Below the pieces are notes generated by a model. The model was given only the letters and a program-made list of their open reading frames with translations, was not told where the DNA came from and made no database searches. Source: a virus (Duplodnaviria > Caudoviricetes). From it: 64,000 bases of DNA. A program made the position numbers and the translations under genes. Shown piece by piece: positions 14,010 through 15,778 of this stretch. Location of the stretch: IMG/VR virus record IMGVR_UViG_3300045391_006539; one strand, 5' to 3'. The stretch's first letter is position 1; each line of letters opens with the position of its first letter.

Positions 14010-14657
14010 GGCTCGCTCGTGGTGTGTGGGTATCTGAACCAGTGTGGCTCGCTTGCAGTTTTCGGGTCGCTGCGGACGCGGCTCGCTCTTCCAGTATGGG
14101 TCTAGGTACTATCTCGGCTCGCTAACGTGATGCGGGTCTCTTGTCAGGTATGGCTCGCTGAACTCACATGGGTCTCTCGCACGTACCGGCTCGCTCCAGG
14201 AATGTGGGTTTCTCTAGGGTCACGGCTCGCAAATACATCTCGGGTCTCATCTAACGTGCGGCTCGCTCCGCTTCATCGGTTCTCTCAAATACAATGGCGC
14301 GCTCTGGCGCTTGGGTCTTCTGCTGATTCAAGGCTCGCTCAAAGCATGTGGTTCACACTAACCGTACGGCTCGCTCTACTCTGTGCGGTTCTCTGAAACG
14401 TCCCGGCACGCTCGATGGTGAATGGGTCTCTGTACAGGTGCGGCTCGCTCATCAATCATGGGTCTCTGGTCCAGTTGGCTCGCTACGTGTATCGGGTTTC
14501 ATGACGACATAGGCGCGCTCGGTGGGGTGGGTCTCCGTGCCGGTACGGCTCGCTAGTTGCATCCGGGTTACTTCCAGAACATGGCTCGCTAATGCCCCAT
14601 GGGTCTATTACGCACTTGGCTCGCTCGGACTATTCGGGTCTCTATTCTGGTACGGCT
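14009..14657 (-). repeat. TIGR-type tandem interspaced guide RNA array, 18 dual-spacer units, about 36-nt period
   Basis: GGCTCGCT-like at +14010, 14046, 14080, 14116, 14152, 14188, 14224, 14260, 14296, 14332, 14368, 14405, 14442, 14477, 14512, 14547, 14583, 14618, alternating with GGGTCTCT-like repeats; unique 7-10-nt spacers, mostly 9. Confidence 0.92.
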
Positions 14658-15778
14658 GGTGCTCCATTGCTCTCCTGAACTCTGGTCTTGTAGTAGAAGC
14701 GCTCGCGTCTGCGCTCCTCTTCTGCCTTTACGAGTTCTGGGTCGGGTCCATGTGACTTGCCATGCTCGACGCCGAGATAGCGCTCGGCATATGACCCGGG
14801 CATGGGTAGACCCTCTATCGTGCGCCAGGCCACCCAGAGTTCCTGGAGAAATTGCTTCATCATATAGCGCTTGGCAGCCATGTGGCGGTGCGCATCATTC
14901 TTGCCCCAAGGCGCGGGTCCTCCAGTACCGTTGCAGTTGGTGCAATGTAGCTTCTCGCGTTCTTTGACTTCGGTGCCTTTCTTACCTCCCTTCTGTCCTT
15001 TGGACTTGAGCTCGAAGGTGCCATCTCCATCGCAGTTCATACAGATGGGTACGACTTGACTCTTCTTGCGGTGCTTGTAGTTGTCATAGAACTGAATCCA
15101 ACCACCGACGTTCTCGACGGAGATGCCATGCTTGTCGATGACGGCCTCGAGGAACTCGTTGGTCGTCTTGGTCACTCCTTTCGTTGCTCTTTCACTCGGT
15201 GTGAGTTCTGGGAAGGTAGTGTCGATGAGGTCCTTGTAAGCGATGGACTTGAGATAGTCCTTGCCCAGTGCGCGTTCGATGGCATCGGTGCGAAGCTTCT
15301 TGATGCGTGAGCCACTCGCCTTGATGATGCAGTCGGCGAGCACCGTGACGACCTTGCTCTTGCGCCAGGGGTCGAAGCCGCTCTTCTCTCCCTTTACACG
15401 ACGCTGGGCGTGACCGTCATCGGCAACGGCCAGACCAAAGTAGGCCCAGAGCTGACTGACCGTGTTGCAGCGATTGATGTCGATTTCGCTGATGAGGAAG
15501 CCGCTCATGGTGACACCGCAGCCTTTTTGGTGCTTGAGCCAACGCTCGTAGATGTTTAGTCCTTTGAGCTGTTTCTCGACATAGCCGAGTGCGTCCTTTT
15601 CGAGCTTGTTCAAACCCTCGCTCTGTGCACCGAAGAAGACGACGTCCTCGTTCCTCAGTTCAATCTCGTTGTCTTCGGTCTGTCCCGAAGCCCGGTTGCC
15701 GGCGGCGATGCGGAGCTTTTGCATGTCGTAGAAAAAGCTGATGGCATGCCGGACTCGTTGTTTTTGTTCGGGTGTCAT
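14642..15778 (-). CDS. Tas-like Nop-domain RNA-guided protein (TasA-like, IS110/Nop related) with inserted CxxCxGxG zinc finger
   Basis: coiled-coil YDMQKLRIAAGNR; KGCG...LISEIDI..CNTVSQLWAYFGL; C-terminal HRHMAAKRYMMKQFLQELW; GGAGGA RBS; directly upstream of the array. Confidence 0.85.
   Translation of the reverse strand: MTPEQKQRVRHAISFFYDMQKLRIAAGNRASGQTEDNEIELRNEDVVFFGAQSEGLNKLEKDALGYVEKQLKGLNIYERWLKHQKGCGVTMSGFLISEIDINRCNTVSQLWAYFGLAVADDGHAQRRVKGEKSGFDPWRKSKVVTVLADCIIKASGSRIKKLRTDAIERALGKDYLKSIAYKDLIDTTFPELTPSERATKGVTKTTNEFLEAVIDKHGISVENVGGWIQFYDNYKHRKKSQVVPICMNCDGDGTFELKSKGQKGGKKGTEVKEREKLHCTNCNGTGGPAPWGKNDAHRHMAAKRYMMKQFLQELWVAWRTIEGLPMPGSYAERYLGVEHGKSHGPDPELVKAEEERRRERFYYKTRVQESNGAPAVPE

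Follow-up and report, generated by a model that had tools for sequence, protein, structure and literature searches.

The window analyzed here, a 64,000-nt stretch of IMG/VR virus record IMGVR_UViG_3300045391_006539, carries a gene for a nuclease-less TIGR-associated protein, designated tasA, and directly after it a TIGR array, both on the minus strand. The features of the locus are given below, with the evidence on which each assignment is based.

14642–15778, minus strand: tasA, encoding a nuclease-less TIGR-associated Nop-domain protein of 378 aa (P0001); NCBIfam NF052498, PDB matches, and an AlphaFold2 (AF2) model
15566–15772, minus strand: coiled-coil hairpin (aa 3–71), the predicted dimer interface; AF2 helices 3–31 and 43–71 and a homodimer model
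15371–15439, minus strand: wedge-loop region (aa 114–136), a short beta-hairpin between Nop helices; AF2 secondary structure and alignment to the TaTasR wedge segment
15101–15310, minus strand: "insertion 1," a 70-aa helical module (aa 157–226) at the position of TaTasR Q247–T249; translation, and pLDDT of 95–98 in the full model
14900–15058, minus strand: "insertion 2," a predicted zinc ribbon of 53 aa (aa 241–293); translation, alignment, and AF2 strands 254–256 and 276–278
14753–14797, minus strand: C-terminal loop bearing the likely dyad for pre-tigRNA processing, Y330 and H339; alignment to SpTasH and conservation
14666–14740, minus strand: extra C-terminal helix (aa 347–371), long only in the P0001–P0007 subclade; AF2 model and tail lengths
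13988–14643, minus strand: dual-repeat TIGR array of 18 units of ~36 nt, directly after tasA; repeat analysis
13988–14643, minus strand: array repeats, edge AGAGACCC[A/G] and loop AGCGAGCC[A/G], with spacers mostly of 9 nt

The register of the array was set by the published box C/box D definition, and in this register the first repeat and the tasA stop codon share 2 nt. Repeats are 9 nt long, with 9/9 spacers in 12 of the 18 units and other lengths in 6, so that the array next to the gene has the two repeats, ~9-nt spacers, and ~36 nt per unit by which a Tas system is recognized. Edge and loop repeats both have AG at the start and CC plus a purine at the end, and hence share box D and box C, the two boxes at which edge and loop repeats have been found to covary (Faure et al. 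2025, PMC12045711). The loop repeat is also nearly identical to that of the SpTasH array (AGCGAGCCA).

The virus record from which the window comes is 150,234 nt long and estimated to be 80% complete, and an identical TasA is present on a second contig of 200,805 nt; we infer that the source of tasA is a large tailed phage of about 150 to 200 kb. A DNA polymerase, a primase, a DnaB-type helicase, and a UvsX-type recombinase are also encoded in the window. Close tasA homologues lie in syntenic loci with a gene-free stretch of 1 to 1.7 kb after tasA, and arrays with the same loop repeat were found in related loci (~27 units in L003 and ~59 in L005). Flanking proteins of 172 and 144 aa are kept between the window and L003; the former, which has no known function, is encoded directly beyond the array, is 69% identical to its L003 counterpart, and has similar-sized genes in related loci. 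No family was assigned to the flanking ORFs by Pfam (ten ORFs) or PHROG (eight of them), and these same searches yielded no ParB-like gene in an operon with tasA of the TasA-TasParB type. The upstream same-strand ORF at 15775–16131 likewise has no family and overlaps a conserved gene on the opposite strand. In a survey of prokaryotes (one genome per species, 185,579 species), a TasA relative was found on one MAG contig only, and relatives in cultured phages were only distant (at most 33% identity over the N-terminal 40%). The clade of TasA proteins to which this one belongs, of which four cysteines described below are a hallmark, is essentially phage-borne.

Identity of the protein and its N terminus

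Sequence and structure comparisons both placed the 378-aa product in the Tas family. It matched NF052498 ("TIGR-Tas system RNA-guided endonuclease") with 124.9 bits against a cut-off of 100, PHROG 4285 at 7.5e-39, and, among PDB sequences, TaTasR (9mty; 7.6e-17) and also SpTasH. The AF2 model, built with 140 homologues, had a mean pLDDT of 92 and a pTM of 0.84, and the best 11 Foldseek matches to it in the PDB were all TasR or TasH structures. In VIA-align comparisons, the model superimposed on residues 111–302 of TaTasR 9mty_A with a Z score of 20.1 (rmsd of 1.6 A, 191 residues, 32% identity), on SpTasH with Z scores of 17 to 19, and on the IS621 and ISCro4 recombinases with a Z score of 14. 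The protein therefore has the Nop/IS110-RNA-binding-domain fold with an N-terminal coiled-coil hairpin, as judged by NF052498, VIA-align, and Foldseek, and the flanking TIGR array (13988–14643) settles its identity as Tas. The locus is a genuine, complete dual-repeat TIGR-TasA system.

Neither a RuvC nor an HNH domain precedes the coiled coil, which assigns the protein to the TasA subtype. The open frame runs only 4 codons upstream of the start, leaving no place for a hidden N-terminal domain, and in the structural alignment, model residue 5 falls on residue 111 of TaTasR and model residues 1–4 fall on residues 63–66 of SpTasH, past the nuclease domains of TasR and TasH, so that the protein begins where their coiled coils begin. 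A Pfam scan of TasA returned no HNH and no RuvC match, and no nuclease Pfam family was found in the N-terminal extensions of its zinc ribbon homologues. These results bear out a preliminary description of the locus from its sequence, which had proposed a nuclease-less Tas protein that opens directly at the coiled coil, with no N-terminal RuvC segment and no HNH motif; the 378-aa ORF is real, and its modeled start coincides with the coiled-coil start of TasR and TasH. The adjoining TIGR array goes unmentioned in that description. The curated NCBI name, "RNA-guided endonuclease," would mislabel this protein.

Insertion 1 and the comparison with characterized Tas proteins

A recent preprint defined two sites in the Nop domain of TaTasR, insertion 1 at Q247–T249 and insertion 2 at V267–S269 (Xu et al. 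2026). In our HMMER alignment, TasA residue 154 corresponds to TasR 247 and residue 290 to TasR 265, which places aa 157–226 at insertion 1 and aa 241–293 at insertion 2. FpTasA of Flavonifractor plautii (Faure et al. 2025, PMC12045711) resembles TasA in being nuclease-less and in having a dual-repeat array with 36-nt units, 9-nt spacers, and a CCN box C; however, its CTD2 helix runs straight into the CTD3 helix without an insertion 1, and its insertion 2 comprises 12 aa and no Cys, compared with 70 aa and a four-Cys segment of 53 aa in TasA. SpTasH of Salicola phage CGphi29 (PDB 9w03/21kl) is also phage-encoded and shares the Nop core, the loop that carries the Y/H dyad, and very nearly the loop repeat, but it cuts DNA and carries an HNH nuclease at its N terminus, essentially lacks insertion 1, and has at insertion 2 a 27-aa hairpin with one Cys and no zinc ligands. 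TaTasR (PDB 9mty), the best structural match, follows the same dimeric coiled-coil plan but begins with a RuvC domain (residues 1 to about 108) and has only 3 residues at each of the two insertions; in the HMMER alignment, 18 of its residues lie between the aligned blocks at the Cys site, none of them a ligand.

Insertion 1, with the sequence SRIKKLRTDAIER...GISVENVGG, is an insertion with respect to the family consensus as well as to solved structures of Tas proteins. The preliminary description had noted an interruption of the Nop region by about 80 aa; the interruption is real, but its length is 70 aa (157–226). Sequence searches with aa 157–226 matched P0002–P0007 only (E values of 1e-8 to 1e-26), with a distant version recognizable by alignment in P0051, P0059, and P0122, for a total of about 10 of the 254 relatives collected. 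A core-column tree grouped P0001–P0007 in one clade (97% local support), on which the presence of the insertion needs two or three changes. Members of this subclade also have C-terminal tails of 26 to 86 aa, compared with mostly less than 15 aa in other relatives. The site itself is a hot spot, occupied by at least 50 residues in 28 of the 254 relatives, mostly as unrelated beta-rich or Cys-containing inserts, and about 70% of close relatives have no insertion there. Insertion 1 is a lineage-specific add-on and the truly unusual part of this protein. It makes the protein, as a dual-repeat TasA with a folded 70-aa module, an exception to the published generalization that dual-repeat cores are compact, and it marks where the Tas scaffold tolerates cargo.

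A fold search with aa 157–226 gave no match above noise, the best being to a helical part of Csm6 with a Z score of 5.0, below the noise level stated for the tool; a protein-atlas search with aa 155–228 gave scores of at most 0.89 and no family; and no nuclease motif was found in the insertion. When modeled alone, the module had a pLDDT of 71 overall and 86 to 91 over its helices. A relative without the insertion (P0032) also has 36-nt units and a similar loop repeat, which indicates that insertion 1 is no adaptation to a larger guide.

One explanation, in line with the adaptor role raised in the preliminary description, would be that TasA acts as an RNA-guided recruiter, with insertion 1 or the extra C-terminal helix docking a separate phage or host effector (a nuclease, a helicase, or a transcription factor), such that the outcome at the target is more than steric blocking. 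We consider this unlikely. The module folds confidently in the full-length model (pLDDT of 95 to 98), is conserved in its subclade, and is near-neutral (about 12 K/R and 11 D/E), which is untypical of a nucleic acid-binding surface; its independence of guide size, as seen in P0032, would also fit a docking role. However, the insertion 1 site reportedly points into the tigRNA spacer loop, an awkward position for docking, and the roughly 70% of close relatives that have nothing at this site work without it. The 172-aa protein conserved just beyond the array (69% identity to L003) would be a candidate partner, but neighboring genes have no Pfam or PHROG family and no partner was found among them, and their synteny is simply explained by phage kinship.

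A predicted zinc ribbon at insertion 2

Insertion 2 contains two Cys pairs, C246-MN-C249-DGDG and C279-TN-C282-NGTG, which bracket a Lys-rich hairpin just ahead of H297-R-H299. The AF2 model places C246/C249 and C279/C282 at the base of this basic beta-hairpin, in agreement with the preliminary description, which had noted two Cys repeats and a Lys-rich loop before the C-terminal helix. From the four invariant cysteines, we infer that insertion 2 would bind zinc.

The same description had taken the zinc motif to set this protein apart, and here the homologues tell otherwise. Our homologue set (n = 254) combined a word-index search (253 matches) with an exhaustive HMMER search, the latter yielding 2,501 cluster representatives at E values of ≤1e-3 and 105 at ≤1e-30. 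Of the 254 collected homologues, 182 have all four Cys, as do 177 of 195 close ones (98/102 plus 79/93, the 93 being matches at E values of ≤1e-30 in the 50%-identity cluster library, excluding those already collected). The four Cys are also invariant in the 140-sequence alignment, the rows of which were selected for having all four. In homologues, the length of the hairpin separating the knuckles ranges from 8 to 98 residues (median of 27), and its composition is on average 25% Lys plus Arg and 16% Asp plus Glu. The predicted zinc ribbon is therefore a hallmark of the whole clade and not peculiar to the tasA gene studied here. The preliminary description had named as grounds for its own refutation that such insertions are already common in known TasA proteins, which holds for the four Cys among natural relatives (177/195); the four Cys are, however, absent from TaTasR, SpTasH, FpTasA, and PlTasA, the four characterized Tas proteins checked. 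No mention of zinc or cysteine at insertion 2 was found in the TIGR-Tas literature searched, and a ribbon shared by the clade seems hitherto not to have been described in words.

In the earlier account, the Cys repeats were called a "DnaJ-type" zinc finger. This likeness holds at the level of the motif, as CxxCxGxG is written alike in DnaJ (PF00684) and in TasA, but not beyond it. In DnaJ, a pair of CxxCxGxG knuckles binds one zinc, and the cysteine-rich domain comprises four repeats and two zinc centers; TasA has two repeats and one predicted metal site, in a hairpin inserted in the Nop domain. Scores against PF00684 were 9.1 to 15.1 bits, compared with a threshold of 32.7, and the structural match to DnaJA2 reached only a Z score of 3.3.

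The arrangement of this region raises the question of a cryptic DNA nuclease, in which a degenerate HNH-like (beta-beta-alpha metal) site would be built from the zinc hairpin and the H297-R-H299 helix, or in which insertion 1 would conceal a nuclease. Many HNH nucleases are laid out as a zinc-stabilized beta-hairpin followed by a His-bearing helix, a layout that TasA resembles, and a weak match to a PHROG annotated as "HNH endonuclease" covers aa 144–219. That match is not significant, however (E value of 0.096), and the segment it covers contains no Cys and a single His. In addition, H278, the sole His of the hairpin, varies even among the closest homologues, and H297 and H299 are core Nop residues that are also present in TasR and TasH, which have nuclease domains of their own. 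A beta-beta-alpha metal nuclease was thus rejected as a candidate, as the hairpin and helix have no conserved catalytic His/Asn and Pfam returned no HNH match. No nuclease family was detected by Pfam anywhere in the protein, and the insertion had no fold match above noise (best Z score of 5.0). The preliminary description had named a cryptic nuclease domain as the finding that would overturn its reading; none was found, and we regard its presence as highly unlikely.

A role for the ribbon at the guide is suggested by SpTasH, in which the insertion 2 site lies beside the tigRNA ends and K233, at the base of insertion 2, is near the tigRNA termini and required for processing (PMC13421893). By analogy, the zinc ribbon of TasA probably lends rigidity to a basic arm next to the guide ends. 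Since the insertion 2 site adjoins the guide ends, the ribbon may influence the processing of guides or the geometry of the target. In practical terms, expression of four-Cys TasA proteins would need zinc and intact Cys.

Proposed mode of action and its implications

We propose that TasA forms coiled-coil dimers, matures its own guides, and binds 18-bp targets without cutting them, a reading to which we assign a probability of roughly 70%. Dimerization would occur through the N-terminal coiled coil. In the homodimer model, the interface comprises residues 4–69, with an ipSAE of 0.61 compared with 0.01 for the best control, and at least 78% of contacts agreed among three runs, with partner pLDDT of at least 74; among proteins of known structure, 20 of 30 pairs and 1 of 23 single chains attained the ipSAE mark applied. 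Homodimerization via the coiled coil, a further mark of Tas proteins, is a prediction here, and it may reflect the memory that the model has of solved Tas dimers.

The dimer would then take up the transcript of the adjacent array, which Y330 and H339 would cut to 36-nt tigRNAs. In SpTasH, the precursor is cut by Y289 and H296 (PMC13421893), and a Y/H dyad is typical of dual-repeat systems (Xu et al. 2026). TasA Y330 aligns with SpTasH Y289, and H339 lies 3 residues beyond the H296 position; the Y is kept in 250 of the 254 homologues, and the H is kept in 231. The SpTasH dyad, together with this conservation, suggests that TasA processes its own precursor into 36-nt guides, likely by way of Y330 and H339. 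Binding of 36-nt tigRNAs by TasA proteins has been published.

A dimer carrying one tigRNA would recognize an 18-bp DNA site, with each of the two spacers, A and B, pairing with a different strand, such that the site reads 5'-A.rc(B)-3', a geometry derived from TaTasR tigRNA1 and its target oligonucleotides. By analogy with the TaTasR structure, the wedge loop would have a role in strand separation, and the four-Cys ribbon would stiffen the base of the basic insertion 2 hairpin. Given that TasA has no RuvC or HNH domain, it would be expected to bind and bend DNA and leave it uncut, as for MbTasA, for which RNA-guided repression of transcription without cleavage has been described, and once bound, TasA would form a roadblock at, or repress, a target belonging to the host or to a competing element. 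RNA-guided binding without cleavage was demonstrated for the nuclease-less MbTasA and PlTasA (bioRxiv 10.64898/2026.09.09.750476 and 10.64898/2026.08.11.744272). A programmable DNA binder or repressor, as the preliminary description had suggested, is thus the best-supported function, by homology and from published work on other TasA proteins.

MbTasA and PlTasA differ from the protein studied here in having stem-loop guides and no Y/H loop, compared with dual-repeat guides in TasA, and the Cys pairs of insertion 2 are missing from PlTasA. Because the characterized TasA repressors use stem-loop guides and are without both insertions, the function is carried over to this protein by homology only.

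Searches for targets of the array gave chance-like results. With the array masked, the 150,234-nt record had no self-targets of the form 5'-A.rc(B)-3' (gaps of 0 to 3) at ≤2 mismatches, and at exactly 3 mismatches, it had 18, compared with 8 to 30 in ten shuffled controls. Three exact 18-nt scans of IMG/VR gave 6, 1, and 0 matches, which were judged to be due to chance because they fell in unrelated contigs of differing GC content (34 to 45%, compared with 59% here). The lack of targets in the record and in the three exact scans, together with the 6 of 18 units that depart from 9/9 spacers, could be taken to mean that the locus is decaying or idle, with the protein and the array as relics out of use. 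We find this hardly credible, as tasA is an intact ORF in which the core residues are conserved, along with the four Cys and the Y/H dyad. Furthermore, relatives hold long arrays (~27 and ~59 units) with different spacers, and the seven-member subclade is well supported and has kept full length at 51 to 57% identity (73% for P0006, over two-thirds of the query).

Beyond the proposed RNA-guided, non-cutting binding, insertion 1, perhaps together with the subclade-specific C-terminal helix, could provide a docking surface for a separate effector, and the clade-wide zinc ribbon could measure or clamp the guide ends in a metal-dependent manner. This combined arrangement is unlikely; if true, TIGR systems would be able to operate with two components, much as Cascade-Cas3 or type IV CRISPR does.

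In sum, a four-Cys ribbon occupies insertion 2 in a large, almost purely phage-borne clade of TasA proteins. TIGR-Tas proteins are under development as very small, PAM-free DNA-targeting tools, of which TasA is the natural version for binding only.

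Genes and repeats at the TIGR array

Just past the TIGR array lies a gene for a protein of unknown function that has a counterpart in L003, the locus of a related Tas homologue, and a small open reading frame begins within the last repeat unit.

Features beyond the array
Window 12999-13517, minus strand: 172-aa protein, function unknown, just past the TIGR array
L003 6217-6735: counterpart of the 172-aa protein
Window 13764-14009, minus strand: 81-aa ORF, its ATG within the last TIGR unit (…AGCGAGCCATGG…)

The 172-aa protein is 69% identical between the window phage and the L003 phage, a higher conservation than that of the nuclease-less TasA in the same two phages (56%), and the arrays of P0003, P0004, and P0007, members of the closest Tas subclade, are followed by genes of like size (174-176 aa). 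The 81-aa ORF belonged to no Pfam or PHROG family, and no alignment was obtained with the small gene that L003 has in the corresponding place; this ORF is probably no real gene, or else is lineage specific.

Arrays far longer than that of the window occur in related phages, with about 27 units at L003 5092-6100 and about 59 at L005 5161-7300. In L003, the tas coding sequence already includes the first loop-type repeat within its 3' end.

Replication module

A replication module situated downstream in the window would fit a large lytic phage.

Window 48693-51605, minus strand: family-A-type DNA polymerase
Window 53786-54802, minus strand: primase
Window 55310-56770, minus strand: DnaB-like helicase
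Window 46853-48220, minus strand: UvsX-like recombinase

Individual Tas homologues and the annotation name

Residues 421-469 of P0125, a 717-aa Tas homologue, form a LAGLIDADG_3 domain, suggesting an intein or homing-endonuclease insertion inside the tas gene. In the homologues P0156, P0178, P0180, and P0194, insertion 1 of the Nop domain carries extra cysteine pairs (e.g., CKGCK…CEYC), which may provide this scaffold with a second zinc site. At L007, the tas gene of P0014 adjoins a gene with an anti-CRISPR-related domain:

L007 4032-5447, immediately after tas: gene with an AcrVA2-like family (PF26125, Pfam)

The NCBIfam equivalog label for the product of window 14642-15778 would be "TIGR-Tas system RNA-guided endonuclease"; on the nuclease-less TasA, the name "RNA-guided endonuclease" is an annotation pitfall.
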